From NCBI GenBank assembly GCA_905235045.1, contig CAJOJO010000009.1, positions 4,241-68,240 of the forward strand: a DNA stretch of 64,000 nt, given 5' to 3'. A program made the position numbers and the translations under genes. The notes under the pieces are model-generated. The model saw nothing but the letters and a program-made list of their open reading frames with translations. It made no database searches and was not told the DNA's origin. Below, in pieces: positions 3,213 to 55,312 of the stretch (positions are counted from its first letter, which is position 1; every line of letters begins with the position of its first letter). Source of the DNA: an uncultured Bacilli bacterium. GTDB lineage: Bacteria > Bacillota_I > Bacilli_A > RF39 > UBA660.

Positions 3213-3232
3213 GAGAACAAATTGTTCTCTTT

Positions 3233-6719: not shown

Positions 6720-6729
6720 AAAATCACCT

Positions 6730-21262: not shown

Positions 21263-21520
21263 AATTTAATCTTCCTTTATATAACTTTTTACTAATTAAA
21301 TTATATAATAAAAGTTGATTATTATCAATAAACTATCTATAGTTTTAGAGATCTATCTAAATAATTGGAATCTTGTAATAATTCAATACTACTATTGTTA
21401 AAAATTTTATACGCCTCTACTTTTGCCTTAATAATATTTTCATCAGTATTACAAAAGTTTTTAAGTCGGGATTTTGACTTAATTTAACTCATTTTTGTTT
21501 ATTTTTGTATTTTTTTGTAT

Positions 21521-22345
21521 TTAATTTACTAATTGATATATAGCTGTATCAGTAATCGTAAACATATCTAAAACATCATTTCCTATATATATTTGAACTT
21601 TTCCAAAGTCTTTTGTTTTTATAATTGCAATATTTGGTCGTGCATAATCTAAAATAGTATATGATAATCCATCAAATTGTGATGGAGCTAAAACACCACA
21701 TTCATTTCCAACAACTGGGGCTTTATCAAGAGGATATACTCGCCATGAGTCAGCTTCAGGACTCAAGTTTAATACTTTCTGATTTTTAACTTTTACATCT
21801 TTTAAATATTTCCACTCAGCTACACCTCTTATTATATTTGTATTATCCATAAAAAAAGCATCTTCTAGTTTCATTTGATTTGGTATACAATAAACACCGT
21901 CTTCATTTGGGAACCAGTCATCCTGTTTTCCTCTTCCAACTTCAATGTGACAATGAACACCTGTAGCTTTTCCTGCATTACCCATATTACCAATTTTTAC
22001 TCCTTGCTTTATAGATTGACCTACATAACAATTAATAACATTATCATGACCACATAAAAATGTAACATAATCAATGCTTCCATCAGCGAGTCTAACTTTT
22101 TCTATTGATTGCCACCAAACAAAGGCATAAGTTCTATTTATATTTACACATCTAACATCTACTGGAGCATAATATGGATATCTTATACCAGATCGTTCTC
22201 CTATAATGTCATTAGCTTCACTTCCCATATGTGATGGTGTATCGTCAGCACCCTGTGTGCAATACCAATCAGTAAAAGGACACAATACATCTTGTATTCC
22301 TCCTCTTATACTTTGCTGTCCTTTTTCCATACTATTCACCACCAC
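21521..22345 (-). CDS. M23 family metallopeptidase, endolysin-like (paired with holin)
   Basis: GQSIKQGVKIGNMGNAGKATGVHCHIEV matches the LytM/M23 C-terminal block (GxTGxxTGPHLHFE). Overlaps the holin gene stop by 14 nt (lysis-cassette arrangement). Confidence 0.6.
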   Translation of the reverse strand: MVVNSMEKGQQSIRGGIQDVLCPFTDWYCTQGADDTPSHMGSEANDIIGERSGIRYPYYAPVDVRCVNINRTYAFVWWQSIEKVRLADGSIDYVTFLCGHDNVINCYVGQSIKQGVKIGNMGNAGKATGVHCHIEVGRGKQDDWFPNEDGVYCIPNQMKLEDAFFMDNTNIIRGVAEWKYLKDVKVKNQKVLNLSPEADSWRVYPLDKAPVVGNECGVLAPSQFDGLSYTILDYARPNIAIIKTKDFGKVQIYIGNDVLDMFTITDTAIYQLVN

Positions 22346-22682
22346 TCATCTTTTCAAAATACTTTTTGAATGGTAGCTTAATTCCTAACTCACCAAGATT
22401 TTCATACACTGAAACTCCTTCAGTAGCTATGCACACAATCGCACTACCAATTAAAAACAAATTTACCTTAACAAAATAATCGATAGCAAATCCCAAGATT
22501 AATGCCACTACCCATGAAATTTTTTTTATAAATCCATCCCTAGAAATAGATGAATTTACTTTCTTATTTTTAATTGCTTTTAAATAGCCAGTTAGAATAT
22601 CTGAAAATACAAATATACCACATAATAGAAATAAAGTTTTAGGATTATTTACTTCCAATATTTTTTGAACAAATTCCTCCAT
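22332..22682 (-). CDS. Holin, TcdE/phage_holin_4_1 family
   Basis: 116 aa with 3 TM helices and a charged C-terminus. LFLLCGIFVFSDILTGYLKAIKNKK resembles the TcdE-type holin N-terminus. Directly upstream of the M23 peptidase. Confidence 0.55.
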   Translation of the reverse strand: MEEFVQKILEVNNPKTLFLLCGIFVFSDILTGYLKAIKNKKVNSSISRDGFIKKISWVVALILGFAIDYFVKVNLFLIGSAIVCIATEGVSVYENLGELGIKLPFKKYFEKMSGGE

Positions 22683-22772
22683 ATCATTTCCTCCTTTTAC
22701 AAGTTAATGATATATCAGTATCTACTAGATATTCACTAGACAAAAAAAGAATTTAGATATTTCTAAATTCTT

Positions 22773-23423
22773 TCAATTAAACTTCACAATATACCAATGT
22801 TCCTTCATTTTTTTAATTGAATTAACTCCATCAACAAGATTATTAATCTTTTTCTTATCAACTGATGAATAGATTATACTTGTTCCTTCATCCGGAAATG
22901 ATCCTATGATTTTAAACTCAATAAGTATATCTTTTTTATTAAACAAATGTATATATACTTCATCATTTATTGATAAATTTTTATATTGAGTAGGCAATTT
23001 TAAATAATTGTTTTCTTCTACCAAATCGAGTTGTTTAATATAATTTATAGCATTTACCCTGTCATCATATTTATTTTTAAATTCAATATTTAATTTAATA
23101 GTGGCAGGATTAAAAACAACAAATAAAAAAGTAAAAGTTGCTAAAAAAATTATTGGATAAACATCGCTTATAGTTTTAACTTCAATAAGTTTTTTGAATG
23201 ACAAAAATAATAATAGTATATATCCAAAAAAAATTATAAAAATTGGTGTTCCAACTAATAGCAAAACAATAATAAACAATTCATCGAAAAACCAAAACAA
23301 TACAAAAGAATAAACGAATAGTAAAAATTCAAAACATATCAATTTCATATTTGTTATATTTTTTAACATAATATCACTAACCTTTATTATATTAATAATA
23401 GCATGATTACCTAATTTTTTCAA
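22773..23423 (-). CDS. Polytopic membrane protein, candidate immunity protein for the RHS C-terminal toxin
   Basis: Four TM helices plus a C-terminal soluble domain. Sits immediately 3' of the RHS toxin C-terminus, the canonical immunity position. Confidence 0.4.
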   Translation of the reverse strand: MKKLGNHAIINIIKVSDIMLKNITNMKLICFEFLLFVYSFVLFWFFDELFIIVLLLVGTPIFIIFFGYILLLFLSFKKLIEVKTISDVYPIIFLATFTFLFVVFNPATIKLNIEFKNKYDDRVNAINYIKQLDLVEENNYLKLPTQYKNLSINDEVYIHLFNKKDILIEFKIIGSFPDEGTSIIYSSVDKKKINNLVDGVNSIKKMKEHWYIVKFN

Positions 23424-23568
23424 GTGAAATCTTTCTATTAAATTTTTAATATTTGCTAACTTTTTGATTATATTAGTATATTATCAAAAGTTTAATTTGT
23501 AATAATTAACAATAAAAATCTACGTGAAATAAATACGTAGATTTTTTAAATTAATACTGGACAATCTC

Positions 23569-25020
23569 TTATTTCATATTGTCATATAAATGATATCCTA
23601 AAGTAATATAATATGTATCTCTTGGATCATCACAAACTGAAGCGGTAAAACAATTTACATAAGTTTCAAGATTATTCCAGTGCTCTTTTAATTGATATAA
23701 CCCAGCTCCTGTCGTTAAGAAATCTAGATCATAACCTATTGCATTTCCTATATATCCAAAATTGATATTTCCTGCATCTTCGGGATCTAAAACTATACCA
23801 TTATACGAAAATGATTTGTTCCACTCAGGAGTTCGCTTTAAGTCAAATTTTCCTCCTGATCCAACATCTTCAACAAAATTAATTAAATTAACTACAGCAG
23901 GTTTATATTTTGTTTCAGCAATTACATCAGCTGCATTTTTTTTCAAAGTATCATTAAATTTTTTAGTTTTATCTGGAACTTTTTTCTTTTGTGTCTTTGC
24001 AATCGCTTTTTTAGCTTTTGAATTTTGACAATCAGTATTTACAAGGGAAATTGCTCCTACAATTACAACAGCTGCAACTATAAGTGTAAATAATCCATGT
24101 CCATCAGGATCAGTATAATTTATAGGGTTATTATTACAATATAAGTACATATTATATCCTAAAACCCCTGTATCAGTTGATAAATAATTATCAGCATTAA
24201 TAAATCTACCCCATAATGGATTATAATATCTACTATTTAAATAATATAGTTTAGTTTCTTTATCATAATAAAAACTTCTGTATCTATATGGATTAATATT
24301 TGCTATATGATTACTATTATTAGAAACATCTAAACCTGTACCATCCGTAATAGAAATTATAGTACCCCATGAATCATATTCATAATTTGCAACAATGTTA
24401 TTATTACTATCAATTATTTGTATAATATCATTTTGTGCATTTTTTACGTAATAATATGTATCATTATTATATTGTAATCCAATCAATCCATTTGCACTAT
24501 TTCGTAGATAATAAATAATGTCATTATTTCTTGTTTCAAAAACAACATCGTTATTCTCAATATAATAGCTAGTATCAACATTATTTATTGTCTTCTTAAT
24601 TCTTATGCCATCTTTGTCATATTTATAGTTGATTGATAAATTTAAATTACTATCAATATAACTTTCAAGCTGTCTACCATTTATCCATGTAAGTGATATA
24701 TTATTACTTATTGATGTTGGATTACCAATATTATCATATACTATAGAATTACCATTAAAAGTTGTTAATTGATCTGTCCAATCATGATTATTATATTCAA
24801 ATTTATAATTTTCTAATTGATTATATGTATCTAGTTCATATACTGTTTTTTTTGTCATATTACCATATTTATTATACTTATATCTTATTGTGATACCCAA
24901 ACTATAATCATCTTCTCTAATTAATTCATTATACTTATCGTAATAATATTTTTTTTCTAAAGTGTTATCATTATATATACAACTAATGTTACCTAATTTA
25001 TTATATTTATACTTTATCAA
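23569..25020 (-). CDS. RHS-repeat protein, C-terminal part: YD repeats, RHS core end, TM helix and ~150-aa C-terminal toxin domain (3' portion of a frameshifted gene)
   Basis: YD-repeat units. Core-domain terminus YYNPLWGRFINADNYL...NPINYTDPDGH (the DPxGL boundary), followed by LFTLIVAAVVIVGAISLV and a unique domain. Confidence 0.6.
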   Translation of the reverse strand: MIKYKYNKLGNISCIYNDNTLEKKYYYDKYNELIREDDYSLGITIRYKYNKYGNMTKKTVYELDTYNQLENYKFEYNNHDWTDQLTTFNGNSIVYDNIGNPTSISNNISLTWINGRQLESYIDSNLNLSINYKYDKDGIRIKKTINNVDTSYYIENNDVVFETRNNDIIYYLRNSANGLIGLQYNNDTYYYVKNAQNDIIQIIDSNNNIVANYEYDSWGTIISITDGTGLDVSNNSNHIANINPYRYRSFYYDKETKLYYLNSRYYNPLWGRFINADNYLSTDTGVLGYNMYLYCNNNPINYTDPDGHGLFTLIVAAVVIVGAISLVNTDCQNSKAKKAIAKTQKKKVPDKTKKFNDTLKKNAADVIAETKYKPAVVNLINFVEDVGSGGKFDLKRTPEWNKSFSYNGIVLDPEDAGNINFGYIGNAIGYDLDFLTTGAGLYQLKEHWNNLETYVNCFTASVCDDPRDTYYITLGYHLYDNMK

Positions 25021-28000
25021 ATTATTATTATTAGTATAGAAGTTCGCTTACCATTTGATACATAATCATATTTGGTTTCATAGTAATTATTTATTTTACT
25101 TTTAGTAATTCTTCCTAATTCGTCATATGTATTATCTAAACTAGAATTATCTAACAAGCAATTACTTATTCCATCGCCATCATTTAATGTATTATCTATT
25201 GTATGTGATGCATTATTTAATAAATATGTTTTTGAAACAATATTGTTATTTGCATCATAACTATATTTAATTGTAAAATTTCCATTTTTTAACATTGAAA
25301 GTCTCTTTGCCAAATCATACACATACTTAATTGAATTTTCGTTAGTTACTATTTTAAGTAAATCACCATTGCTACCATATTTATAATTATAAATATTATC
25401 CATAGTAGTTAATTTAATAATTCTACCAAATTCATCGTAATCAAATCGTATTTCTTGATTATTGCCATATTTAGAAGTAATTAAATTACCATTATTTGAT
25501 TCATATGTATTGGTCATCATTGTAATATTATTACCAATTTTAACTTTAGAAACATTTAAAAATTCATCATATTCATATTTGTAAATTCTATCATCTTGAG
25601 ATATTTGTGATATATGATTATTATTATTATAAATATAATTTATAACTTTATCACCTGAAGAAATTGATGATATTTGATTTTTATTATTATATTCATAATT
25701 AGTTATTATAATATCATTGTTATTAATTGATTTTATTAACCCTGACACTTGATCATATTCATATTTAGTAGTTTTAAAATTTGAATCAATAGTTTTTGAT
25801 ATAAATCTTCCATCAGTTGTATACTCAGCACTTTTTTCAATAAATTTGCTATTAGTTATACTTTCAAAATAAAATTCATATGCAGGATCACTATTAACTA
25901 AATCATCAATTATTAAATTATTATTTGATACTTTTAAAAACTTTTGTGTTTGCTTGTTTTTTATCACAAAACTACCATTATCATGTCTATCAAATTCGAA
26001 AAGTGAATTATCATTTTGATAGTTTGACATAATAATTGAACTATTACTTATTGTAATATATTTTTCAATAATTGAATGTTTTATTTTAAAATAATCAATA
26101 TTATTTATAGTTACTTTTTCAATTATCCACTTACAATGTGCATGTAAATCTTCCTGTATATTAACTAGATTATTAATACAATTAATATTATTATATGTAC
26201 CACTTTGTCTTATAATATATACTCCATCAACTATTTCTTTACATTGTCCTCTATTAATCATTTTTGTTGATACAATATTACCAAACTCATCATAATCATA
26301 CTCAGTAGAAATTCCTATTTCTGATACACCTTTTAAAAGTTTATTATCACTATCATATTCATATGTAAATTTTTGGCCTTTTGGATTTTTTGAACTAATT
26401 AATTGATTTTGAACATTATATTTATATTCAGTCGTATTATTATCCAAGTGTTTGGTTTTAATTATATTACCTTCATCATCATAATCATATGTGCTATTTC
26501 TAATATCTTTAAACATATTTATATTTGTTATATAAAACTCATTACCATTTAATTCTTGGTTAAAAATAATATTTACTGCATTAAAATCCCATGGAGCTAT
26601 CATTTGCGAAGAATAGAATTGCCATTCGTTTTCATTTGGATTAAGTGCTACTTCAAAAAATCCACCATCTGTTTGTTGTTGTTGAACCGGAATAAAACTA
26701 ACGAACACATTGCATCTTGTTCCACTTCCTAAACCTGTACCGCCTAATAGTCCTGTATGCTTATACCAAAATGATATATTAAATAAATCTCCTTCTCTAC
26801 CACATATATTTAGTCGTTGACTAATACTTGATGTATTTGAAGTATTCATATTAATTTTTAAGCAATTTACATTATCGACAGTAGTTGCTTCAAAAACAGA
26901 ACTAACCGGGAAATTTTGACCTGAATATTGTGTCCATTGACTTAATCCATTAGAAAAATCGGAATTTTCAATCATGTTATAATTATTTGCTACTTCACCA
27001 ATTTCTAATTGAAAATCGTCACAATAGTAATAACCAATTTCTTCCATTATAAGAATAATTTTCAGATTACTATTTGCATTTGATGGATAAAAAATTGTAA
27101 CATCATTTCTTTCAAATTCACTTTCTGTTGAAATAGTACTAGACGAAGATACTTCTTGATTATTTTCATCAATATAAGATAATCTAATTGTTAAATGTTT
27201 GTTGTCTGTTTTAAAATAACCACTAAAAGTATAGAATTTTCCTTTTTCTACAGAAACATCTTGATATGTCGATTGTACTGGATTTGCGCAAGTAATTCTT
27301 AAACTTTGGAAACCTGTATTAGCATAATTAGTAGTTGTTGTTAATGAAACATTATTATTTGGAACAAACAAAATATCATTTAAATCTGTACTTTCAAAGC
27401 TTGAATTTGTTAAAAAATTTTTAACATATCTTATAGGCATATTATTTTTTAAAAGTTTGTTTTTATAAGTGTTTTCACCAAAATATGATACACCATAATC
27501 AATATTTAAGCCATAACCATCATTAATATTGTTATATTCCTTTAATGTAGAAGTAGAAACAGGATTACCATAATCATTAAATGTTATTGTATTAGATCTT
27601 CCATACGAATCTAAAATTGTCGTTGCATTAAATCCATATGTTACTTCGTAATATTTTCCAAGTGTTTGATTACTACCATATTCACTTATTTTTTTTATTT
27701 TATATGGTAAATTACCATAATATTGATATTCTAATTTTTTTCCAGTAACATCTTCAATATCAGTAATTAAACTATTGTTATTATTTGATATACTTACAAC
27801 ACCAAGTGATGATTGAACGCTTATTAAATTATTACTATTATTATATGTTAAATAGAAAGTATCATCACTACTAATAATTGTTATTTGATTTGCGCTATAT
27901 TGAATGTTAATTTCATTTTCATTAACATCAGTAACTTTATTTATACGATTATTTGTATCATAGCTTATTGTTATTATATTATTGTTAATATCCTTAATTT

Positions 28001-29774
28001 CTGTCAAATATCCAATACCGTTTATTTTAAGAAATTTTTTTTCAGTTTTATTTTTATCTCTTAATATATAATAATTATCATTATTTTCTATTACTAAATT
28101 CAATCCATCCTCATCAAAAAATGTATTTTCATAAGTAGTAGTATTGTAGTTATTTGTATTATTATCATACATAACTCTTTGATTTAAAAAATAATGTATT
28201 GTCCCATCTTCGTCAATATATTCCAAATAATTAGTATTTTCAATTAATCGTGATTGTATTGTTTGATGATAATTTAATCTATATCCTATACCATAACCAA
28301 TATCATTCCCTAATACAACATCATTAGTATTATATACCAATTTTAAATTTGCCGGTAAATTACCTCCAATTGTTTGACCTATATTCATTATAGTTGTTAA
28401 ATTACCATTATAAAGATTGTGGCATATTTCACCTAAACTCATTTCTTGTCTTTGGTAACTCATATACTGTTCTAATCCATTTTGATTCCTATATGTTATT
28501 ATCAAATATGGTTTTGGGTTAGTACCTGTAACTGAATTGTTTTTTGAAAAAAACATAGGAATAATATCTGTTTTGTATACTTCATTACTTAATTTTAACA
28601 TCATACCATAGTTTGGAGTTTCTGTATACCATTTTTGAACTAAAGGAGTTATATCAGCACCTGATAAACTTAATATTATGTTACCATTACCATCTTCATA
28701 ATGAATTCTGCGACATATAAATGTTCCTTCTACTCTTGAATCAAATTTATCATTCATTGAATTCCATGTTGCTGTTGTTTCATCCCACGATGTTGTAATT
28801 CTATATATATTGACAATATCAGATGAATATGAAAATGTATAATCTGGATAATTTCGTAAATTTAATTTTGCTGAAATAACTTGACTTCCTGTTCCTAATG
28901 TGGGTAAATCAAATTTTAATAATGATCTATTTATTCTATCACTACCACTTATTCTTTCTACACCAACTTTTAAGAAATCTCTGCTATTTCTGTCATCATT
29001 TGTATCACCAGGATATATGTATGTGTCATACACATTACCATTTTGAGCATTATTCGTAATTGTTGGATCAATAATAACAGGATATTTAATACCTGAGTTT
29101 AACCACTCTTTATCAAGAATTGTTTTTAACTCATAACTATTATCTATTTTATTTAATTCATATTCTACATTGATATTAAGTTCACCACTTGAATCCATCA
29201 TAAATGGCACTTCAAACTTAAATACACATTCATCATTATTCATAGCGATTATACTATCATTTTCTAATTTTAAATCTAAATCAGTGTCAATCTTAAACAC
29301 TAATTTATCAATATCAGAATCTCTATCTTTTATATAAATGCTTTCTTTTACTCTAGATGAAACTAGATCATAACATATATCAACATTTTTTAAAACATTA
29401 ATATATTTTATTTTACCAATAAGTTTTGACATAGACTCTTCTTGTACTATATCAAATTGATTATAGTCTTTTAAAGAGAATGATATAAAATGATTATCTT
29501 TTTCTATTCTCATTAACTCAGGTTTAGGAACTGCAGTGAATAACACTTTATTTTCATTAGCTTTATTTACATAATGATCATCTTCTAAAATCAATGTGTT
29601 ATCAATTTCTTCAAACTTGCCATTATTAAAATAATGAATATTTTCATCATACATTTCTGCTCTGAATTCACCATTTTCTTGGAGAAAATGTTTTTCTTTA
29701 GGTCCTCTTTTATCGACTATTTCTATTTCTTTCATATTTACCTCCTTAATTTTTATATTTAGATAACTTTTCAA
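25017..29774 (-). CDS. RHS/YD-repeat protein, N-terminal 1585 aa (5' portion of a frameshifted gene), with beta-trefoil/lectin-like insert
   Basis: Dozens of YD repeats (YEYDSDNKLL, YDYDEFGNIV, YSYDANNNIVSKTY). Overlaps the next ORF by 4 nt in another frame inside an att-att-att run, and the YD repeats continue across the junction. Confidence 0.6.
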   Translation of the reverse strand: MKSYLNIKIKEVNMKEIEIVDKRGPKEKHFLQENGEFRAEMYDENIHYFNNGKFEEIDNTLILEDDHYVNKANENKVLFTAVPKPELMRIEKDNHFISFSLKDYNQFDIVQEESMSKLIGKIKYINVLKNVDICYDLVSSRVKESIYIKDRDSDIDKLVFKIDTDLDLKLENDSIIAMNNDECVFKFEVPFMMDSSGELNINVEYELNKIDNSYELKTILDKEWLNSGIKYPVIIDPTITNNAQNGNVYDTYIYPGDTNDDRNSRDFLKVGVERISGSDRINRSLLKFDLPTLGTGSQVISAKLNLRNYPDYTFSYSSDIVNIYRITTSWDETTATWNSMNDKFDSRVEGTFICRRIHYEDGNGNIILSLSGADITPLVQKWYTETPNYGMMLKLSNEVYKTDIIPMFFSKNNSVTGTNPKPYLIITYRNQNGLEQYMSYQRQEMSLGEICHNLYNGNLTTIMNIGQTIGGNLPANLKLVYNTNDVVLGNDIGYGIGYRLNYHQTIQSRLIENTNYLEYIDEDGTIHYFLNQRVMYDNNTNNYNTTTYENTFFDEDGLNLVIENNDNYYILRDKNKTEKKFLKINGIGYLTEIKDINNNIITISYDTNNRINKVTDVNENEINIQYSANQITIISSDDTFYLTYNNSNNLISVQSSLGVVSISNNNNSLITDIEDVTGKKLEYQYYGNLPYKIKKISEYGSNQTLGKYYEVTYGFNATTILDSYGRSNTITFNDYGNPVSTSTLKEYNNINDGYGLNIDYGVSYFGENTYKNKLLKNNMPIRYVKNFLTNSSFESTDLNDILFVPNNNVSLTTTTNYANTGFQSLRITCANPVQSTYQDVSVEKGKFYTFSGYFKTDNKHLTIRLSYIDENNQEVSSSSTISTESEFERNDVTIFYPSNANSNLKIILIMEEIGYYYCDDFQLEIGEVANNYNMIENSDFSNGLSQWTQYSGQNFPVSSVFEATTVDNVNCLKINMNTSNTSSISQRLNICGREGDLFNISFWYKHTGLLGGTGLGSGTRCNVFVSFIPVQQQQTDGGFFEVALNPNENEWQFYSSQMIAPWDFNAVNIIFNQELNGNEFYITNINMFKDIRNSTYDYDDEGNIIKTKHLDNNTTEYKYNVQNQLISSKNPKGQKFTYEYDSDNKLLKGVSEIGISTEYDYDEFGNIVSTKMINRGQCKEIVDGVYIIRQSGTYNNINCINNLVNIQEDLHAHCKWIIEKVTINNIDYFKIKHSIIEKYITISNSSIIMSNYQNDNSLFEFDRHDNGSFVIKNKQTQKFLKVSNNNLIIDDLVNSDPAYEFYFESITNSKFIEKSAEYTTDGRFISKTIDSNFKTTKYEYDQVSGLIKSINNNDIIITNYEYNNKNQISSISSGDKVINYIYNNNNHISQISQDDRIYKYEYDEFLNVSKVKIGNNITMMTNTYESNNGNLITSKYGNNQEIRFDYDEFGRIIKLTTMDNIYNYKYGSNGDLLKIVTNENSIKYVYDLAKRLSMLKNGNFTIKYSYDANNNIVSKTYLLNNASHTIDNTLNDGDGISNCLLDNSSLDNTYDELGRITKSKINNYYETKYDYVSNGKRTSILIIII

Positions 29775-30135
29775 TTTCTTTTTTTACATTTGGATAGTAA
29801 TTCTTCCATAATGTAGATACATCTTTATTTTCTTCTTCAGAAACTTTTTCAATTGCTTTAGAAACACTTGTCCCATTAATAACAATTTCTTTATATAATT
29901 TGTTTTCAATACCACTTAAATTACATATATCTTCTTCTATTTTTTTAATGACTTTGTTGTATTGGCTTATAGTTTTTTTAATCAGTTCTATTTCAGCTAA
30001 GATGCCTCTTTCATATTGAGTTAATAGTTTTAATCTTTCTTGCAAACTGTCTAACTCAACTTTTGTGTTAATATAGTTATCTATACATTTCATATAATAT
30101 TTCGCGAAAAAGAACATTACGCAGTTCTTTTCCAA
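29746..30135 (-). CDS. Hypothetical coiled-coil protein (129 aa)
   Basis: ORF between the tail-collar gene and the RHS gene. Overlaps both ends. Confidence 0.35.
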   Translation of the reverse strand: MEKNCVMFFFAKYYMKCIDNYINTKVELDSLQERLKLLTQYERGILAEIELIKKTISQYNKVIKKIEEDICNLSGIENKLYKEIVINGTSVSKAIEKVSEEENKDVSTLWKNYYPNVKKEIEKLSKYKN

Positions 30136-31289
30136 GTATATACTTCATATCTAAGTGGAGTTACACTGTGTGTATGTGAGTTTAAAGTATGTGTATGACC
30201 TTGTCCACCACCAGTGTTATTATTAGTAGCTGTCGCATTTTGTGTATAATAAGTTACTAAAGCTGCACCTGCATAGAATCCTGAACTACCAGCTGGTCTA
30301 GTGTCATAATGAGCTGGGTCATTCATCCAAGTATTGTTATTTTGTGCATGACTATGTGGGTTTTGAGTATGTGTATGGCTTGGCATTTGTGCTACGGTTA
30401 ATGCTGTGCTACCAGTTGTATTTGTACTTGGTCCACCTGATGTATTACTTCCTGCTGTGTTACCACCATCACCAGCATATAAATAATATCCATTAATTCT
30501 ATCCCATGTTCCACCAAATAATGTTGCTGGGCTTGTACTACTTACTGAAAGATAAATACTACCAACAGGATATATTAAATCAACAACTTCAGAACTAGTT
30601 AATCCACCACCAATTGGTGTACCATTAATTGTAAGTGAATTAGCAACTATGTTTCCAGCGTTGTCAATGCTAAATGTATTATTTTTAGACGTAATACATT
30701 TTGCAGTTAAATTATCTACTTCAATATTTAATTCATCTCCGATTTTTGTGAATGCGTCTTTGAAGTAAATGTCGTCTAGTGAGAAATCATCACACGCTTC
30801 AGTGTGTCTAGCATAAATTACACTATTAACGAATAGTCTGTTTAAATCATCATCTTTTGGATATACGATTATAATATCAGCATCTGTATAATTAGTATAA
30901 ATGTAATTAGTTCCTTCAAATAAAGTTATGTCTATAGTATCTAATTCTTCGACTACAGGTTCAGATAAAACTGAATTATCGCTTCCAATTAGTCTATTAA
31001 CATATGCCTCTAGAACTATCTTGTTATTCTTTAATGCTACTTTTTGAACTACTTCATCACCCTCCCCACTAGCATATCTTAAAATATCAGTAAGATTGAA
31101 AACATATTGTTTTCTATCATTACTAGGATTTGAAGATGATTGTTTATCAACATAGATAACCAAATCATTTTCATTTGGTGCTACTGATGTCGCACCCATC
31201 TTAATTTTTATCCCTAATGCTGCCGCATTTAGAGAGTCTTGTAAGCTGATTTCATTTGTACCGCTTACGCTTTGATTCGTTAAATTCAT
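30117..31289 (-). CDS. Phage tail fibre protein with C-terminal tail-collar (MdpB-like) domain
   Basis: IYPVGSIYLSVSSTSPATLFGGTW ... LTVAQMPSHTHT ... HSH ... GHTHTLNSHTH matches the phage tail collar domain signature (xPVGSIxxS ... FGGTW ... LTxxQMPxHxH). Confidence 0.6.
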   Translation of the reverse strand: MNLTNQSVSGTNEISLQDSLNAAALGIKIKMGATSVAPNENDLVIYVDKQSSSNPSNDRKQYVFNLTDILRYASGEGDEVVQKVALKNNKIVLEAYVNRLIGSDNSVLSEPVVEELDTIDITLFEGTNYIYTNYTDADIIIVYPKDDDLNRLFVNSVIYARHTEACDDFSLDDIYFKDAFTKIGDELNIEVDNLTAKCITSKNNTFSIDNAGNIVANSLTINGTPIGGGLTSSEVVDLIYPVGSIYLSVSSTSPATLFGGTWDRINGYYLYAGDGGNTAGSNTSGGPSTNTTGSTALTVAQMPSHTHTQNPHSHAQNNNTWMNDPAHYDTRPAGSSGFYAGAALVTYYTQNATATNNNTGGGQGHTHTLNSHTHSVTPLRYEVYTWKRTA

Positions 31290-31426
31290 ATTCTTATCAC
31301 CCTTTCTTGATTTAACACCTACATAGTAATTTAAACTTTACTGGATATTCACTAGACTTTTTTTCTTTTTTCAAAAAAAAGAAACAAATAGTTATCTCAT
31401 TTGTTTCCCCATTTAAATTTAATTTT

Positions 31427-38319: not shown

Positions 38320-40050
38320 TTATCTAATTAATGATTTAGATACTGTTATAACTGGACGAATACCAAAGGTGTTTGGTTCATATACGTCACTATTAATCAA
38401 GGTACCATCTTTATACACCGTCCAAGCACGATATGAATAGTTAGTAACAGGTGAACTTGTCCAGTATCCAGATGTGCTTGAATCATTTATATCACATCCA
38501 TAACCTGTGCATCCTTTTGTATAATCAAATAACCATGCATATGGGCTTGCTCCTTGTACTGATGATACTCGTGTGTGTTTATTTGTTCCTGTCCCATCAA
38601 AATAGAACCATGTACTACTATCTCCAGCAAATGTTGATGTGTTTGTGATTGTTGCAATTTCGTTTGCTGTTATTAGTCTTGGATTTAATCCACTATCCCA
38701 TCCTGTTGCATCTGTATCTACTTGTGTTTTTATTGATGTTTGGGAATATTCTTTATATGTTCTTGATGTTTCATATTCTACTGTTGCTGTTGTATTATGG
38801 TCTAATATCATTGTATAGTTATCTCCACTATCATTAAAGATATACCATTTCATACATCCTGTTTTTGTGCCTGGAGTACTTATTGAATTACCAATATTAC
38901 ATGTTTTATTTAAATCTGTTGGATCTAAATATACTATTCCTTTATGTGTTTCACCAGTTTGAGCAGCTACTTTAGTTGGTCCTGGTACTCCTAAGTAAGT
39001 TATTTTAGCATAACCATTACCAGCTTTTGCACACTTACTTACTGGATTACTACTATAACCACTAGAACAATTAGTAGTATCTCTTTCTGAACTTGAACCA
39101 GTAGTAGATATTGTATAAGTTTCTGGATCATTTGATTCACTACATCCATAACAATACATTGATTTATTACTTAAATTAGAAGAAGCGATGTATCCTGATC
39201 CACCGCCGGCTCCCCATTCTGGTCTATTAGAGCCACCGCCGCCGTAGTAGCCGCCACCGCCGCCAGATCCACCACAGCAAGTATGATAATAGTTACCACC
39301 TTGACCAAATGAACCATGACCATACGATGAAGCTGAAATACAATATCCATATATGGATTGTGTACCACCAGATCCTGCATAAGAAGTAGTTGAATCATCT
39401 AACCTTGTTCCTGTTGCTCCGGCAATTCCACCTCCAAAACCTCCGGCGCCAAAATAACCACAAGTGCCATTTGGTCTACGATATGTTCCACTTCCACCGC
39501 CGCCGCCAGCTACAATTAATATTCTTCCATCAGTAGCATGTGATGATAAACTTGATAAAACTCCTGAGTCCATTGCGATATGAGTAGCTCCGCCACCACC
39601 TGATGATCTTTCTAATTCAGAACCATTATCAGTACTATATCCATTACCACCACCATTATAGCCGCCAGTTAATGAATCTGGTTTTTGACCAACTACTACA
39701 TATATTTTTTCGTCTACATCTAAATTAACTGTGCCTACAGAATATCCACCATATCCAGCATCATCAATATAACAGGTATCACTATAATATCCACGGCCTC
39801 CTTGAGCGCCCCATACTTCTAGCTTATATTCTCCATCACAAGGAGCAACAAATTCTTGCACATCTCCTGTATAATCAAAAGTATAAACAATTCCTGATTG
39901 ACATTTATCACCATTTATTACTTCACTTTTTAATTGATCTAATAAATTTTTCTTATTTTTAAAATTCATTAATAACATATATATAAGAGCTAAAAAGATT
40001 AATAAAATCGTATATAGAATGCCTGATACGGCAAAACCTTTTTTATTCAT
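38320..40050 (-). CDS. Membrane-anchored glycine-rich repeat protein (one ELWGAQGG module), paralog of the 51558-55073 protein
   Basis: N-terminal MNKKGFAVSGILYTILLIFLALIYML (pilin-like but lacks Glu+5). Module EYKLEVWGAQGGRGYY ... GGYNGGGNGYS ... SGGGGATHIAMD ... RILIVAGGGGGSG. C-terminal Ser/Thr/Tyr-rich domain. Confidence 0.5.
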   Translation of the reverse strand: MNKKGFAVSGILYTILLIFLALIYMLLMNFKNKKNLLDQLKSEVINGDKCQSGIVYTFDYTGDVQEFVAPCDGEYKLEVWGAQGGRGYYSDTCYIDDAGYGGYSVGTVNLDVDEKIYVVVGQKPDSLTGGYNGGGNGYSTDNGSELERSSGGGGATHIAMDSGVLSSLSSHATDGRILIVAGGGGGSGTYRRPNGTCGYFGAGGFGGGIAGATGTRLDDSTTSYAGSGGTQSIYGYCISASSYGHGSFGQGGNYYHTCCGGSGGGGGYYGGGGSNRPEWGAGGGSGYIASSNLSNKSMYCYGCSESNDPETYTISTTGSSSERDTTNCSSGYSSNPVSKCAKAGNGYAKITYLGVPGPTKVAAQTGETHKGIVYLDPTDLNKTCNIGNSISTPGTKTGCMKWYIFNDSGDNYTMILDHNTTATVEYETSRTYKEYSQTSIKTQVDTDATGWDSGLNPRLITANEIATITNTSTFAGDSSTWFYFDGTGTNKHTRVSSVQGASPYAWLFDYTKGCTGYGCDINDSSTSGYWTSSPVTNYSYRAWTVYKDGTLINSDVYEPNTFGIRPVITVSKSLIR

Positions 40051-48795: not shown

Positions 48796-50062
48796 TTATA
48801 TTTCTTCTAATGTTATTTTAGCACCAACATTAGATAATTTTTCAATTATATTTTCGTATCCTCTTAAGACATGTTCTACTGATTCAATTACTGTTTCTCC
48901 ATCAGCTATTAAACCAGCTAAAATCATACAAGCACCAGCTCTTAAATCTGTTGCGACAACTGTTTTGCCTTTAAATTTAGTTGGCCCATTAATATATAAT
49001 TTTTGTTCATCTAACTCAATATTAGAACTCAATATTAGCTCCCATTTGTTCTAAATAAATAACGTTATTAAACCTATTTTCGTAGATTGTTTCTTCTAGT
49101 ACTGATTCACCATTAGCCATACATAGTAAAGTGGTTATTGGTTGTTGTAAATCCGTTGGAAAACCTGGATATCCCAATGTTTTAATGTTGGCTGGACGAA
49201 TATTATCAATATGTGAAATAGTAACTGAATCTTTGGTTATTTGTAAATCAAATCCCATTTCAATTAGTTTTGTCATTAAAGATTCAATATGTTGAGGAAT
49301 AATATTTTTTATTGTTAAGTCTTTTCCTATTAAAGCTCCGGCTATTAAATAAGTTCCAGCTTCAATACGATCAGGTATTACTTCTGTATAACATCCATGT
49401 AATTTAGTAACCCCATATATAGTAATTCTACTTGTACCAGCACCTTGAATATTAGCGCCCATATTATTTAAAAAAGTTGCTACACTAACTATTTCTGGTT
49501 CTTTAGCAGCATTTTCAATAACTGTTTTGCCTTCGGCTTTAACAGAAACAAGTAATGTATTTATAGTTGCTCCAACGCTAGGCATATCTAAATAAATATT
49601 ATTACCCACTAGTCTTTCAGCATCAATTGTATATTTGTTATTTTTTTCAATAATTTTAGCACCAAGTAAACGAAAGGCTTTTAGTGTTTGATCAATTGGC
49701 CTACTCCCTATATTACATCCACCAGGAAAATACATTTCAACATGCTTATATTTACCTAATAAAGCTGACATAAAATAATATGAAGCCCTTAGTTTTTTAG
49801 AAATATTTTCTGGTATTTCTTTGTTTACAATACTTGATGAATCAATAATCATTGTTCCATCTTCTCTTTTTACTGTTGCTCCTAACCACATTAGTATTTC
49901 ATTTAAAGCATCAATATCAGATATATTTGGAACATTATCGATAGTAACAATATCATCAGATAATAGTGAAGCAGGTACTAATGCTACCGCACTGTTTTTA
50001 GCACCACTTATATTTATAACGCCTGATAATGTATTACCACCTGTTATTCTTATTTGTTTCAT
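48796..50062 (-). pseudogene. murA: UDP-N-acetylglucosamine 1-carboxyvinyltransferase MurA, disrupted by a 13-bp tandem duplication
   Basis: 346-aa plus 78-aa ORFs together are collinear with MurA (...YLEQMGANIEF* / SSNIELDEQKLYINGP...ATDLRAGACMILAGLIADGET...). The junction has aactcaatattag duplicated at 49013-49025 and 49026-49038. Removing one copy restores the frame. Confidence 0.7.
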
Positions 50063-51557: not shown

Positions 51558-54500
51558 TTATCTTACAAAAGTTATTTTAGCAAATCCGTCGCCTTCATTA
51601 CCTGTCATAACTGTAGTACCATCATGAGTTGGCATTTGGGTTAAACCACCACGTTCTGTAGTCCATTTATATCCTTCACCATCTATCATTTTTGTACTTG
51701 TAAATTTATATCCAGTATATGAATATGAATCTGATACAGATGAAGCTGTTGTTGCGACTGGAGTTCCTGATGAATTTACAGCTATACAACCATTATGACC
51801 TGAGATATATGATGATCCACCGGATGTTGTAGCACCAACATATGAAGCACCAGCTGCTCCATACCAGCCAGAACCTCCACCGTTACATGACCAGTTTTGA
51901 TATCCGTTACCACCTTTACCAAAGCTTCCAGATTGACCAGGATAACTTGTATAAGGTGTACCACCAACAGTTTGATTTGGTAATCTGGATACCTTATATG
52001 ACATTGCTGAAGCACCACCGTTTCCTAGAATACCTTCAAGTCCGCCGCCTGCACCATCCCAAGCAGTCCAATCAGCGCCATTATAACTACTAGCGCCAGC
52101 TCCTCCAGCGGCTACCATAATTCTAGAATATAAACTAGTAGCATTATTCCATTCAAGTCCATCACCTATAACCCGAATGTCAGTGGCTCCACCGCCTGCA
52201 TAACCAAAACCACCGCCAGCACCATAACCAGCTCCGCCGCCATTATATCCAGCATTTGTTCCGTGTCCTCCTTGGCCACCAACAAATAAATATAATTTTG
52301 TTCCTTTTTCTAATCGGATTTCACCTTTAGTGTATCCTCCAAGACCACCTTTAATTGTACTGTTTAATGATCCACCTGATGCTCCCCATAATTCAATTTT
52401 ATAAGTTCCCGTTATTGGAGCAATAAATGGTTGATAAGTTGCAGCTCCCCAATATGTCCAAGTTGATTCAGAATTTATAATATTTTCCGCATAGTTGTTT
52501 TTTGTTTCTTTTTTAACTAGCATTACTCTTGCATATCCATTTCCACTATTACCAGCAACCATTTCACTAGTTAAGTGTTGTTTCATATTTACTTTACCTT
52601 TTCGATCAATTGTCCATTCGTAACCTTCACCATCAATCATTTCCGTATCAGTAAATATGTATCCAGTATATGAATAAGCACTACCGTTATGAACACCATC
52701 TTCATTTAGTGAGTCACAACCTAAGTGACCTGAAATATATGATGATCCACCAGCTATAACTGAACTTACATAGGAACCTCCAGCTGCTCCATACCAGCCA
52801 GAACCTCCACCGTTACCTTGCCAGTTTTGATATCCATTTCCACCTTTGCCAAAATCACCATTTTGTCCGGCGTAATATGTAAATGATGTTCCTGGTAAAC
52901 CTTGCCCGGCTAGTGTTCCGGATTTATTGTTGGTAGCCGATGTTCCTCCGGATCCCATTAATCCCTTCAAACCACCACCAGCGCCACCATAGGCAAAATA
53001 ATCAGCACTATAATTACTAGCACCAGCTCCACTAGCAGCAACCATAATTCTACTTCTCAATGAAGTAATTTCGTCCCATGTTGTTGATGGTGATGTTCCC
53101 ACAGAACGAACATCGGTAGCACCTCCACCACCAGAAGTATTAATAGCGCTAGCATAACCAGAACCTCCACCATTCCAACTACCATTTTTTGTACCTTGAT
53201 GTCCTACATAAAAATACAATTTTGTTCCTTTTTCTAAATAAATATCACCTTTAGTATAAGCACCTAATCCACCTAAATAAGTATTTATTGATCCACCTTG
53301 AGCACCCCAAAGTTCAAAACGATATGTTCCATTTGCTGGAGCTGTAAATGTTTGATAATTCACTGCTGCTCCATATGACCAATAAGTATTTAATTCTGCT
53401 ATTTCTTTATTTCTTGTTTCTTCTGATTTATAAATAGGCGTTACTAAAGATATTTTTGCATATCCATTTCCTTCATTACCATCTACTTCACCACTACCTG
53501 ATTTATTTGGCATTTTAATGTATTCACCTTTTACTTTTGTCCATTCATATCCGGTTCCATCTATCATTTTTGTATTAGTAAAATATTTACCCGTCCATGA
53601 TACAGTTTCACCATTAGCTTGACCATTCTTATCGACTGATCCACATCCTTGATGACCTGAGATATATGACGAACCACCAGAGTTGTGACCACCTACATAG
53701 GAACTACCAGCACCACCGTACCAGCCGCCACCGCCGCCGTTACCTTGCCAGTTTTGATATGAATTTCCGCCTATACCAAACCTACCATCTTGCCCAGCAT
53801 AATAACCGCTTGCAATTCCACCACCACCTTGGGTAGCAGGAGTAGATTGAAGTGCTAATGCACCAGCTCCAACTGCAATAGATGTAATTCCTTCAAGTCC
53901 ACCTCCAGCGGCACCATAGCCATAATAATCAGTACTATAATTACTTGCGCCACCACCTCCGGCAGCAACCATAATTCTACTGTTTAATGAAGCTAATTCA
54001 TTCCATATGGTTTCTGCTGATGTCGCAACTGTTCTTACATCAGTAGCTCCACCACCACCGCGATAGGCATATCCGTTTCCGCCACCATTCCAACCACCAG
54101 TAGCGGTAGTAGTAGTACCACCTACATAAACGTATATACTTTCTCCTTCATCTAGATATAAGTATCCAGCTGTATATGCTCCTTTACCTCCATACATTGA
54201 TGCATTAATGGTGTATCCTTGAGCACCCCATAATTCTACATTATATAAACCACTATATGGAGCGGTGAATGTTTGATATTGACCAGTATAATCATATTCC
54301 CAAGCATAACCACTTAAATCATCAAATTCACTAAGTAATACCCATTTATTATCATTAAATACATATGATTCTTTTGGTTGCCATTTTCCATCCTCATATT
54401 GCATTACACATGCCACACCTAATTTACTCTTATCATTTTTTATTACATTATCTGCATCACTATTTTGAACAATCCATACATTTCCTTCTTTAGGATTTTC

Positions 54501-55073
54501 AATTCCATCATTAGAAAAATAGTAATCAGTTATTTTTGTATTTGTAATAATTCCAATATAACCCTCTCCACTTTTTTTAGGCATTACATCTGTTGATTCA
54601 TATGCTGTTACACTTAATCTAGTACCAATATAACTTGGTGTTCCAGTTGTTACAAACCCCATAAAATCTTTATCAAAATCATCTGTACATATTCCGTTAT
54701 CTAATATTACATCATTAGAATTTATATCTTTTTTTGCATACCATTTTCCATTATCAATACATACTGCAATGTCAGCATATGGTGTAATTGCAACAAAACC
54801 ATGATCTATTGATCCCTTATAATTTAATTTTTCATATTCGTCGGTTTGTTGATTATTATTAAATGACAAAATACGAAGATCTGAATCTTCGCTCATATAA
54901 CTATTATAATAATATCCTGCTGAATCAATTATTCCGTATACAGAATTTTTTAAAGCACCTTTTTTAGCATTATCAATTACATTTTTTATTACTGGTATTG
55001 ATATTACTAGCACTACTGCTAGTACCACTATTACCGCTAATAATTCTACTAGTGTAAATCCCTTTTTCTTCAT
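51558..55073 (-). CDS. Giant type-IV-pilin-like protein with three tandem glycine-rich (ALK/LTK Gly_rich-like) modules
   Basis: N-terminus MKKKGFTLVELLAVIVVLAVVLVISIPVI is the prepilin peptidase cleavage/N-methylation motif (G-F-T-L-x-E). Three ~300-aa repeats each contain YQTFTAP..GTY..ELWGAQGG ... YVGGQG ... NGGGxGY ... GGGATDIR ... SRIMVAAGGGGAS. Confidence 0.55.
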   Translation of the reverse strand: MKKKGFTLVELLAVIVVLAVVLVISIPVIKNVIDNAKKGALKNSVYGIIDSAGYYYNSYMSEDSDLRILSFNNNQQTDEYEKLNYKGSIDHGFVAITPYADIAVCIDNGKWYAKKDINSNDVILDNGICTDDFDKDFMGFVTTGTPSYIGTRLSVTAYESTDVMPKKSGEGYIGIITNTKITDYYFSNDGIENPKEGNVWIVQNSDADNVIKNDKSKLGVACVMQYEDGKWQPKESYVFNDNKWVLLSEFDDLSGYAWEYDYTGQYQTFTAPYSGLYNVELWGAQGYTINASMYGGKGAYTAGYLYLDEGESIYVYVGGTTTTATGGWNGGGNGYAYRGGGGATDVRTVATSAETIWNELASLNSRIMVAAGGGGASNYSTDYYGYGAAGGGLEGITSIAVGAGALALQSTPATQGGGGIASGYYAGQDGRFGIGGNSYQNWQGNGGGGGWYGGAGSSYVGGHNSGGSSYISGHQGCGSVDKNGQANGETVSWTGKYFTNTKMIDGTGYEWTKVKGEYIKMPNKSGSGEVDGNEGNGYAKISLVTPIYKSEETRNKEIAELNTYWSYGAAVNYQTFTAPANGTYRFELWGAQGGSINTYLGGLGAYTKGDIYLEKGTKLYFYVGHQGTKNGSWNGGGSGYASAINTSGGGGATDVRSVGTSPSTTWDEITSLRSRIMVAASGAGASNYSADYFAYGGAGGGLKGLMGSGGTSATNNKSGTLAGQGLPGTSFTYYAGQNGDFGKGGNGYQNWQGNGGGSGWYGAAGGSYVSSVIAGGSSYISGHLGCDSLNEDGVHNGSAYSYTGYIFTDTEMIDGEGYEWTIDRKGKVNMKQHLTSEMVAGNSGNGYARVMLVKKETKNNYAENIINSESTWTYWGAATYQPFIAPITGTYKIELWGASGGSLNSTIKGGLGGYTKGEIRLEKGTKLYLFVGGQGGHGTNAGYNGGGAGYGAGGGFGYAGGGATDIRVIGDGLEWNNATSLYSRIMVAAGGAGASSYNGADWTAWDGAGGGLEGILGNGGASAMSYKVSRLPNQTVGGTPYTSYPGQSGSFGKGGNGYQNWSCNGGGSGWYGAAGASYVGATTSGGSSYISGHNGCIAVNSSGTPVATTASSVSDSYSYTGYKFTSTKMIDGEGYKWTTERGGLTQMPTHDGTTVMTGNEGDGFAKITFVR

Positions 55074-55312
55074 ATAAATATAAGCCTACTTTCTAGTAAT
55101 ATTATACCCCCCCCCGGTACCTAAAATCAAGACTTAACGTATTTTTCTATCAAACATTTTTTTATTTTACTTAATAATAATTCTAATACTTTTTGTTCCT
55201 TAAAAGATATGGATTATATCTTCTTTAACCGTTAATTCATTCATATAAATCCTCCTTAAGTTTTATATAGTAACAAATTAAGATTAAAAAATATGTCGTT
55301 TTATCAACATAA

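Follow-up and report, generated by a model that had tools for sequence, protein, structure and literature searches.

Can a large glycine-rich protein that begins like a type IV prepilin be read as part of a pilus and, if so, what might it do there? The question is raised by a gene on the reverse strand of a 64-kb stretch of DNA (the whole of which is called the window here) from an uncultured Bacilli bacterium. A preliminary description of this DNA had proposed an unusual 'megapilin', in which a prepilin N-terminus and a pilin-sized head are followed by three glycine-rich modules. The coding sequence is complete, and an exact-sequence look-up returned no identical protein on record.

A class III signal on a small pilin module

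The gene and the features of its N-terminal part are as follows.

51558..55073, reverse strand: coding sequence of the modular type IV pilin with three glycine-rich (GRD) modules; ATG start, 1171 aa plus stop
55059..55073, reverse strand: leader peptide MKKKG (aa 1-5), from the N_methyl and TIGR02532 matches; predicted prepilin-peptidase cut after Gly5
54897..55058, reverse strand: alpha-1 helix (aa 6-59) with Phe+1, Glu+5 (E10) and Pro+22 (P27); AF2 helix at residues 8-59
54645..55073, reverse strand: pilin module (aa 1-143), made up of alpha-1 and a beta-sheet head; Cys105 and Cys129 are conserved
54312..54626, reverse strand: second all-beta domain (aa 150-254); AF2 strands at 154-248

Judged from its sequence, the N-terminus, MKKKG|FTLVELLAVIVVLAVV, is a genuine class III (prepilin) signal, with the short basic leader ending in Gly, the hydrophobic segment and the Glu at +5 by which type IV pilins are recognized. 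The prepilin N-terminus claimed for the 1171-aa open reading frame is borne out by two profiles, PF07963 (N_methyl; 26.3 bits against a Pfam cutoff of 21.2) and TIGR02532 (IV_pilin_GFxxxE; 25.3 bits against an NCBIfam cutoff of 16.3). Across 71 homologues of the pilin module there is no variation at G-1, T2, L3, E5 or L7 and little at Pro22 (P27 in the precursor; at least 90% conserved). The sole sequence match in the PDB was the Streptococcus sanguinis pilin PilE1 (8pfb), and in the alignment with chain 8pfb_G residue F6 of the query pairs with chain residue 1. For the pilin module AF2 predicted a 52-residue helix (8-59) plus a beta-sheet (pLDDT 86.7), and residues 1 to about 131 recur in 832 N_methyl proteins (E <= 1e-3), whose C-terminal domains are of many kinds. 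In the model this module is the carrier, its helix of about 50 residues packed against a small beta-sheet.

The supposed pilin-sized head proved to be composite, since its 254 residues comprise the pilin module of about 143 aa and the second beta domain, with a hinge between them at aa 144-148 (AF2 pLDDT below 50). Only about 14 GRD pilins have such a second beta domain. No significant structural match to it was found, and from its place in the model it may be a putative stalk or adaptor.

Three ALK/LTK-type glycine-rich modules

The remainder of the protein consists mainly of the GRD modules, whose envelopes come from a profile built on the protein's own modules.

53406..54311, reverse strand: GRD module 1 (aa 255-556), PF12810; profile envelope 264-555; 23.5% Gly
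52482..53363, reverse strand: GRD module 2 (aa 571-864), PF12810; profile envelope 571-864
51561..52442, reverse strand: GRD module 3 (aa 878-1171), PF12810; profile envelope 878-1171

On sequence criteria the three modules are true PF12810 (ALK_LTK_GRD) domains, as had been suspected: the Pfam profile matched in three stretches with 384.8 bits against a gathering score of 24.5 (E 3e-115), and the best stretch, aa 888-1169, covers positions 7-242 of the 243 in the profile. A short connecting helix (aa 551-561) precedes module 2, and the protein terminates with the last strand of module 3 (...GDGFAKITFVR). It contains no LPxT[GAN] motif, that is, no LPXTG sorting signal, and does not qualify as a sortase-anchored adhesin or pilin. 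Plain low complexity, which the preliminary description had named as the finding that would overturn its view of the modules, can be dismissed, given the profile matches and the many conserved non-Gly positions, W282, D345, R347 and R366 among them. In a profile of 463 modules conserved Gly-rich motifs alternate with variable segments.

All the motifs listed earlier do recur in each of the three modules, but to call the series near-identical went too far, as the modules are only 52-58% identical in protein. At the DNA level they are 70-77% identical in gap-free blocks and 74-77% in global alignment, and the longest exact word that they share is 37 nt. Because the identities are this low, the risk of assembly collapse that had been feared is itself low. 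The count of three is matched in three independent assemblies, from the same species (L003), from a sister species (L170/P0002) and in P0003. As for the spurious antisense reading frames ascribed to the repeats, just one of at least 80 aa lies within the gene (51842..52093, forward strand).

A full-length AF2 model built on a 50-sequence alignment reached a mean pLDDT of 87.1 and a pTM of 0.78. When it was compared with the PDB by Foldseek, the TG/GRD structures of ALK and LTK (7nx1, 7mzy, 7ls0, 7n00, 7lir) were the only significant matches (probability 1.0, E 2e-7 to 3e-5), with superpositions that are loose (TM 0.31-0.47, 13-20% identity). The bacterial modules thus share with these receptors both the PF12810 family and a significant structural match. 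They differ in being repeated three times in tandem on a pilin, in a protein where neither an EGF-like nor a kinase domain, nor any other domain of receptor kinases, was detected. In characterised ALK/LTK members the PF12810 domain is extracellular and ligand-binding; we know of no bacterial counterpart of the ALKAL cytokine ligand.

A second comparison is with phage receptor-binding tips. Salmonella phage S16 gp38 is such a tip with a polyglycine lattice, and in tips of the gp24/gp38 type a conserved Gly-rich scaffold carries variable distal loops that set receptor specificity. The modules, in which conserved Gly motifs take turns with variable stretches, recall them in organisation only. Neither homology nor a significant structural match to S16 gp38 or Pam3 gp24 was found: the PDB gave no sequence match to gp24 or gp38, and Foldseek gave no match at E <= 0.001 except ALK/LTK. 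Moreover, gp24 and gp38 are trimeric fibre tips, whereas the protein described here is a pilin fusion. Pam3 gp24 combines TNF-like and Gly-rich domains in a receptor-binding tip that is reported to be structurally similar to ALK 7LIR (PMC9608196).

It might then be asked whether the gene encodes a phage-derived receptor-binding protein, or is a prophage remnant, rather than a host pilin. PF12810 does occur in phages, in the Pam3 tail fibre and as a stand-alone protein within the virion structural module of large phages, and at about 20-32 kb the window itself looks phage-like, having there a Gp10_C baseplate-like protein, an RHS toxin gene and, judged by eye from the sequence, putative lysin and holin genes. 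Yet more than 20 kb separate that region from the gene, which stands amid housekeeping genes and is syntenic in a sister species. The viral homologues are just 32-38% identical with one module each, and the canonical bacterial class III signal found here was not noted in a viral homologue (on a cursory look). A phage origin of this kind seems to us most improbable.

A catalogued family of modular pilins

The protein is far from alone. Among 121 sequences (the protein and its 120 best homologues) 31 have the same architecture, and in public genomes and metagenomes about 5,000 cluster representatives are matched by the GRD module. Its nearest homologues come from animal-gut samples, close relatives are present in the samples ERZ28573638 and ERZ28612947, and NCBI annotation already calls homologues prepilin-type proteins. 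Modular pilins have been surveyed by Raynaud et al. (2021; PMC8179133), whose Dataset S1 lists the architectures IPR012902-PF12810 and IPR012902-PF12810x3. By their definition, an IPR012902 module joined to a domain that has its own signature and is not specific to type IV pili, the protein is a modular pilin (PF07963 plus three PF12810). The family is already catalogued and sizeable, though never studied, and the architecture is common in the clade, so that the 'unusual megapilin' of the preliminary description looks overstated. Three modules are likewise a modest number, since as many as 11 stretches were matched in other GRD proteins.

In the literature searched we found no experimental function for any bacterial GRD protein, and bacterial proteins with ALK/LTK-type GRDs, for all their thousands of cluster representatives, lack a tested function there. 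Within this clade the GRD has repeatedly been grafted onto pilins. For annotation, the lesson is to name a large, solitary 'glycine-rich protein' a modular pilin when its N-terminus reads KKGFTLxE.

The best-known modular pilins are PilB (vWA) and PilC (lectin) of S. sanguinis (Raynaud et al., 2021, PMC8179133; Shahin et al., 2023, PMC9934059). Like them, the protein begins with a class III signal and has a small pilin module joined to a bulky domain through a short linker; both belong to monoderm hosts, and the predicted role is that of a tip-located minor pilin adhesin. There are also clear differences. The cargo here amounts to about 1,030 aa, three tandem GRDs and a beta stalk, as opposed to one extra module in each S. 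sanguinis protein; the gene lies outside any pil operon; the host is an uncultured, sporulating gut Bacilli of about 25% GC; and the protein is known from sequence alone. The non-pilin tip adhesins of the PilC/PilY1 type follow the same carrier-plus-effector logic, and one PilY1 architecture in the survey, IPR025592-PF12810-IPR008707, includes PF12810 (PMC8179133). In contrast to those, our protein has no PilY1 beta-propeller and is itself a pilin.

Genomic setting and the case for a pilus

As the preliminary description had stated, the window holds no pilus assembly genes: six-frame profile searches of the 64 kb found no homologue of PilB, PilC or PilD (best score 9 bits). The gene sits among housekeeping genes, an arrangement kept in the sister species and not conserved beyond the genus, with spoIIR directly upstream. 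Pilin genes of the clade are usually solitary, and this one is no exception. Its close orthologues do not adjoin pilus genes, nor do two stand-alone pilins that share its pilin module (P0178 and P0210) adjoin the machinery. A core pilC-pilD-pilB cluster nonetheless occurs in related gut Bacilli (27 species representatives), and in two related species (L004 and L010) a GRD-bearing pilin lies inside or beside it. The genomes with such clusters are only distant relatives, with housekeeping proteins about 50-70% identical and WhiA 48%. No genome was found to hold both an orthologue and a type IV pilus cluster: P0005 and P0097 belong to different MAGs (MBP... and MBO..., respectively), the neighbourhood of P0161 (same MAG as P0003) has no pilus genes, and the 80 PilB loci of a genome scan included none from an assembly with a known orthologue.

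On balance, we favour the view that this is a modular type IV pilin, cleaved at its leader and probably a minor pilin of the tip, with the GRD modules serving as adhesin surfaces. The leader would be cut off by a prepilin peptidase (Peptidase_A24) whose gene lies in another part of the genome, and through its alpha-1 helix the protein would enter a type IV filament assembled by an ATPase of the PilB type and a platform of the PilC type. The appendage would most likely be at the filament tip, because some 100 kDa cannot fit the filament body. There the three modules could present binding surfaces in the manner of phage tail-fibre tips, as a scaffold with variable loops. By analogy with these systems, the protein is probably a pilus-displayed adhesin. 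The earlier pilus adhesin reading is largely supported, by the class III signal, the PF12810 modules and the linkage of GRD pilins to pilB, pilC and pilD in related species, though not in its 'unusual' character.

An alternative is that the protein is held at the cell surface by its pilin-like helix and takes no part in a filament. The class III signal would then serve for export and processing only, alpha-1 would stay in the cytoplasmic membrane, and the stalk and GRD modules would project through the wall as a fibre bound to the cell. The solitary position of the gene in every close orthologue, with no adjoining pilin or assembly genes, is consistent with this, and a cargo of about 1,000 aa beyond alpha-1 may pass a monoderm wall poorly on a filament. 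Display of GRDs in the absence of a pilus is also conceivable because proteins of the same family use other N-termini, namely Sec- or SipW-like signals or a KKGF that lacks Glu5. Against it, Glu+5 and Pro22 vary little or not at all among the 71 homologues, and these residues matter when a filament is assembled, not when a protein is simply anchored; GRD pilins sit in the pilus clusters of L004 and L010; and characterised modular pilins with bulky modules do enter filaments (PMC8179133). We regard such a helix-anchored protein as possible, if unlikely.

The position next to spoIIR invites a further explanation, a spore-associated appendage or coat fibre made during sporulation. Sporulation genes recur near the relatives, with SpoVIF directly upstream in L006, CotE nearby in L002, and SpoIIGA, sigE and sigG near a pilin cluster in L089. 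This proximity may nevertheless be insignificant, because by a rough estimate a random 20-kb window in a small sporulating genome would often hold such a gene. The location, moreover, is not conserved beyond the genus, the promoter-like site (see below) is of the sigma-70 type (TTGATT/TATAAT), and the class III signal requires a peptidase of the cytoplasmic membrane, which nothing ties to the forespore. A role in the spore therefore appears very unlikely.

If, as we favour, GRD pilins are pilus-tip adhesins, they would show how a little-known group of uncultured, small-genome, sporulating gut Bacilli attaches to hosts, particles or other microbes, and would add a new class of effector to the modular-pilin concept. 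They would also offer a tractable prokaryotic system for the polyglycine-II/TNF-like fold of phage receptor-binding proteins and human ALK/LTK.

Strain variation in the third module

One stretch of the gene differs conspicuously between strains.

51762..51958, reverse strand: strain-variable mosaic patch in GRD module 3 (CDS nt 3116-3312, about aa 1039-1104)

By sequence comparison, the gene evolves faster than its neighbours, and the differences cluster in this one mosaic patch. Within the species it is 98.3% identical, against 99-100% for neighbouring genes, and relative to the sister species 77%, against 82-95%. Between the window and L003, 56 of 61 nucleotide differences fall in the three 150-nt bins that span the patch, where the two alleles are 76% identical. 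The closest candidate donor of the window's allele is module 2, which at only 84% identity can be rejected as the exact donor. Recombination among the GRD modules might nonetheless diversify the binding surface.

More broadly, the GRD could be a receptor-binding cassette that the type IV pilins of uncultured gut Bacilli share and exchange with PilY1-type adhesins and phage tail fibres, and that is present here in a pilus-tip adhesin diversifying by recombination between its modules and perhaps switched by the poly-G tract. We put this forward tentatively and consider it rather doubtful as a whole. Were it true, the adhesin would be built on the TNF-like/polyglycine fold with which metazoan ALK/LTK receptors bind their cytokines, and the prokaryotic family would be the natural place to study how that fold arose and how it binds.

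Upstream signals and a G tract

Three elements precede the start codon.

55101..55130, reverse strand: sigma-70-type promoter-like site (consensus scan, 10 of 12 matches)
55107..55115, reverse strand: G9 homopolymer (C9 on the forward strand), inside the promoter spacer, read from the sequence
55085..55090, reverse strand: Shine-Dalgarno-like AGTAGG, 11 nt 5' of the ATG, read from the sequence

The promoter-like site consists of TTGATT (55130..55125), an 18-nt spacer and TATAAT (55106..55101) and lies 28 nt upstream of the ATG. Expression could proceed from this promoter of the gene's own, and the G9 tract in its spacer might modulate it. The tract is the sole run of G or C of at least six in the 64 kb, where 0.005 C9 runs are expected from base composition. 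It is also present, at the same length, in the consensus assembly of L003, and an assembly artefact can be discounted because two independent assemblies are concordant and the sister species has a related tract. That of L170 is interrupted (GGGGGGAGG), with the spacer length unchanged at 18 nt. Judged by its sequence, the G9 is a candidate slipped-strand switch, although among the spacers of the window, L003 and L170 (consensus assemblies) no variation in tract length was seen. The promoter-like layout is also kept in L170, and the Shine-Dalgarno-like AGTAGG in both L003 and L170.

Prepilin N-terminus and glycine-rich modules

The window has a GC content of about 25% and carries most of its genes on the minus strand, where the open reading frame at 51558..55073 was present as the preliminary description had it, with an ATG start and a product of 1171 aa; glycine codons raise its own GC content to about 40%. 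Pfam model PF07963 (N_methyl) matched this product with 26.3 bits (cutoff 21.2), and NCBIfam model TIGR02532 (IV_pilin_GFxxxE) likewise exceeded its cutoff, while the NCBIfam equivalog models for ComGC, GspG and ComGD/E/F stayed below theirs and matched the N-terminal helix alone. The sole PDB-sequence match was the Streptococcus sanguinis pilin PilE1 (8pfb), residue 1 of whose deposited chain aligned to query F6, and cleavage is therefore predicted after Gly5. These matches bear out the type IV prepilin N-terminus that had been proposed; an LPXTG motif is absent from the protein. The ALK/LTK-type glycine-rich domain (GRD, PF12810) was detected by Pfam with an E-value of 3e-115 in three stretches, in agreement with the three modules read from the sequence:

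aa ~255-556 of the target: GRD module 1
aa ~571-864 of the target: GRD module 2
aa ~878-1171 of the target: GRD module 3

The target is a real feature and its core was correctly recognised, and the best-supported reading is that of a modular type IV pilin. A prepilin peptidase would, with high confidence, cleave the class III signal. With moderate confidence, and drawing on the analogy of S. sanguinis PilB and PilC (PMC8179133), the protein would enter a type IV filament through its alpha-1 helix; the tip is the most probable site, since an appendage of this bulk has no room in the filament body. The GRD modules would then work as binding surfaces.

The three modules follow one another with a period of 921-951 nt and are 52-58% identical as protein. 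As DNA they are 70-77% identical in gap-free blocks, the longest exact word shared among them being 37 nt; they are diverged repeats, which makes assembly collapse unlikely, a risk that the preliminary description had overstated. The three-module structure also recurs in independent assemblies, namely at the same-species locus L003 (1172 aa), in the sister species (P0002, locus L170; 1181 aa) and in a remoter relative (P0003; 1175 aa).

Fold and possible binding role of the modules

The full-length structural model was confident (pLDDT 87.1, pTM 0.78), and every module in it consists of beta-sandwich strands together with long high-confidence stretches that have no DSSP assignment. The model gave 21 significant PDB matches (probability 1.0, E-values 2e-7 to 3.5e-5), all of them TG/GRD structures of ALK and LTK, although the superpositions were loose (TM 0.31-0.47). 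These matches include the complexes ALK:ALKAL2 and LTK:ALKAL1, in which the ligands are ALKAL cytokines. In the tail fibre gp24 of phage Pam3, domains of TNF-like and of glycine-rich type, reported to be structurally similar to ALK 7LIR, recognise the host receptor by way of a hypervariable distal tip (PMC9608196). ALK/LTK and Pam3 gp24, the sole members of the fold to have been characterised, bind ligands, and from this we infer that the GRD modules may likewise be binding surfaces. Three further observations are consistent with such a role: the alternation of conserved glycine-rich motifs with variable segments across 463 modules, the presence of PF12810 in one PilY1-type adhesin architecture (Dataset S1, PMC8179133), and a stand-alone PF12810 protein among virion structural genes.

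This last protein (312 aa) is encoded at 6037..6975 of the viral locus L090, among virion structural and tail-lysozyme genes; it is 32-38% identical to the pilin modules, and its PHROG families (1589, 5811 and 7388) are annotated 'unknown function'. Besides L090, the one locus examined, about 80 other viral loci (L090-L169) on large IMG/VR contigs (80-160 kb) encode GRD-like sequence.

The head and its relatives

With aa 1-255 as the query, 832 proteins were retrieved at E<=1e-3, but the widely shared part of the head extends only from aa 1 to ~131-135, and the entire head is common to about 14 GRD proteins. N_methyl was present in all but one of the 120 matches listed, which are 140-450 aa long and bear many kinds of C-terminal domain, Gp10_C, phage Collar and H-type lectin among them. 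The head is more than one domain: in its AlphaFold2 model (pLDDT 86.7) helix 8-59 packs on strands 67-143, followed by a low-confidence hinge (144-148) and a second all-beta domain (154-248). Across an alignment of 71 pilin-module proteins, G5, T7, L8, E10 and L12 are invariant, and conservation reaches at least 90% at P27 (mature Pro22) and C129. Among the homologues P0133-P0240 there are proteins in which the target-type pilin module (aa 1 to ~131) is fused to PF21939 Gp10_C, PF07484 Collar or PF09458 H-type lectin, which suggests a pilin family bearing receptor-binding modules of phage type.

Full-length homologues number at least 1,497, and those with a named source are labelled "Bacilli bacterium" or just "bacterium". 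Among 121 sequences, the target and its best 120 homologues, the N-terminus is of canonical prepilin type in 31, of a related type lacking Glu5 (KKGFVVSAVLYP...) in a large group, and a Sec- or SipW-like signal in the rest. One GRD module by itself matched 4,986 cluster representatives (50% identity) at E<=1e-3, with up to 11 matched stretches per protein. The Glu5-less N-terminus KKGFVVSAVLYPLLVLF occurs on about 30 of the best 120 homologues, with up to five GRD modules. Such an N-terminus might represent a variant of the class III signal, say that of a filament-capping subunit, or a plain signal anchor. A second GRD protein in the window falls in this class (38320..40050, minus strand; 576 aa; PF12810 E-value 2.4e-33), its N-terminus (MNKKGFAVSGILYTILLIF...) being pilin-like but without Glu at +5 or an N_methyl match, and its C-terminus weakly matching DUF6273.

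A 2021 survey of modular pilins comprised more than 1,200 proteins in 264 architectures, and its Dataset S1 holds IPR012902-PF12810 in two proteins and the target's own architecture, IPR012902-PF12810x3, in one (PMC8179133). Homologues have also been named by NCBI, either as prepilin-type proteins or as "glycine-rich protein". The target therefore belongs to a known, catalogued kind, the closest being the modular pilins, and the earlier judgement that it is unusual was too strong: the feature is real and the kind of system is not new. Our literature search found no functional work on bacterial GRD proteins, and the target is of moderate interest for representing a class of modular-pilin effectors, so far uncharacterised, that has an intriguing link to ALK/LTK and phage receptor-binding folds. 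That it is itself a remnant of a phage is extremely improbable; like its close orthologues, the target stands alone amid housekeeping genes.

Genomic neighbourhood and pilus machinery

Synteny of the locus is confined to the genus, with the order spoIIR-pilin-mntP in the window, L003 and L170, while the pilin genes of P0003 and P0005 are located elsewhere. That the target is a spore-associated fibre is a very unlikely reading.

No open reading frame in the 64-kb window resembles PilB, PilC or PilD, as had been stated. GRD pilins more distant from the target do show linkage to the machinery: the gene for P0097, a protein of 1072 aa with three GRD modules by a purpose-built profile, directly follows pilC (T2SSF), pilD (Peptidase_A24 and its N-terminal domain), pilB (T2SSE) and also a prepilin-type gene of 158 aa. 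When species-representative genomes were scanned with PilB from this cluster, it recurred, 60-90% identical, in 27 related gut MAGs, mostly titled Bacilli, Tenericutes or Mycoplasmatota, and where flanks were covered pilD, pilC and neighbouring prepilin genes generally stood alongside. The modular pilin beside this core carries three GRD modules at locus L004, Ig-like and GRD domains at L010, and InlB-type Flg_new repeats at L008; at this pilB-adjacent position effector modules are swapped cassette-like on a common carrier. Other pilin genes of the clade are likewise scattered away from the machinery, and the isolation of the target is therefore normal for its clade. The genomes that bear the cluster are only distantly related to the window organism, housekeeping proteins common to both being ~50-70% identical, and a search for a genome with both a target-type orthologue and pilus machinery found none among the loci compared. 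A membrane-anchored surface fibre that does not polymerise is a less likely alternative, to which we give perhaps a quarter of our belief, and the modular pilin remains the preferred reading.

Sequence variation and a candidate switch

The target gene evolves faster than its neighbours, being 98.3% identical within the species (neighbours 99-100%) and 77% identical to the sister species (neighbours 82-95%). Of the 61 nucleotide differences between the window and L003, 56 fall in a patch of ~200 nt in module 3:

51762..51958, minus strand: putative mosaic or gene-conversion patch, aa ~1039-1104 of the target

Across it the two alleles are 76% identical to each other and the window allele is 84% identical to module 2. 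This clustering, with the window allele nearer to module 2 (84%) than the other allele is (76%), suggests recombination among GRD modules, module 2 being the closest module but not an exact donor. The murA gene (48796..50062, minus strand) has a 13-bp tandem duplication (CTAATATTGAGTT) at 49026..49038 relative to L003, causing a frameshift into two open reading frames of 346 and 78 aa in place of the single 417-aa frame of L003 and L170; this might reflect a genuine mutation, a variant within the population or a mistake in assembly.

Upstream of the target lie the following elements:

28 nt upstream of the ATG: promoter-like site, TTGATT - 18 nt - TATAAT
11 nt before the ATG: Shine-Dalgarno-like AGTAGG
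55107..55115: G9 tract on the coding strand (C9 on the plus strand), within the 18-nt spacer

No other G or C run in the 64 kb reaches a length of 6, composition predicting 0.005 C9 runs. In Neisseria, Bordetella and Mycoplasma, surface proteins undergo phase variation through tracts of this kind in promoter spacers, and we hypothesise that the G9 tract is a candidate for the same. The two same-species assemblies, the window and L003, showed no length variation, both having G9; the sister species (L170) has GGGGGGAGG with a spacer of equal length. At locus L031 a pair of C10 tracts (12733..12742 and 15255..15264; G10 when read on the coding strand) is placed immediately upstream of two paralogous genes for secreted proteins next to pilB, or at their 5' ends. 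One of the tracts sits between TTGACA and TATAAT, and switching of surface proteins by poly-G tracts may be recurrent in the clade.

Elsewhere in the window, a phage- or toxin-like region spans ~20600..31300 on the minus strand:

21521..22682, minus strand: putative M23-type lysin and holin, read from the sequence
23569..25020, minus strand: RHS/Ntox44 toxin open reading frame, after the RHS-repeat frame
25017..29774, minus strand: RHS-repeat protein, 1585 aa
30117..31289, minus strand: Gp10_C baseplate-like protein
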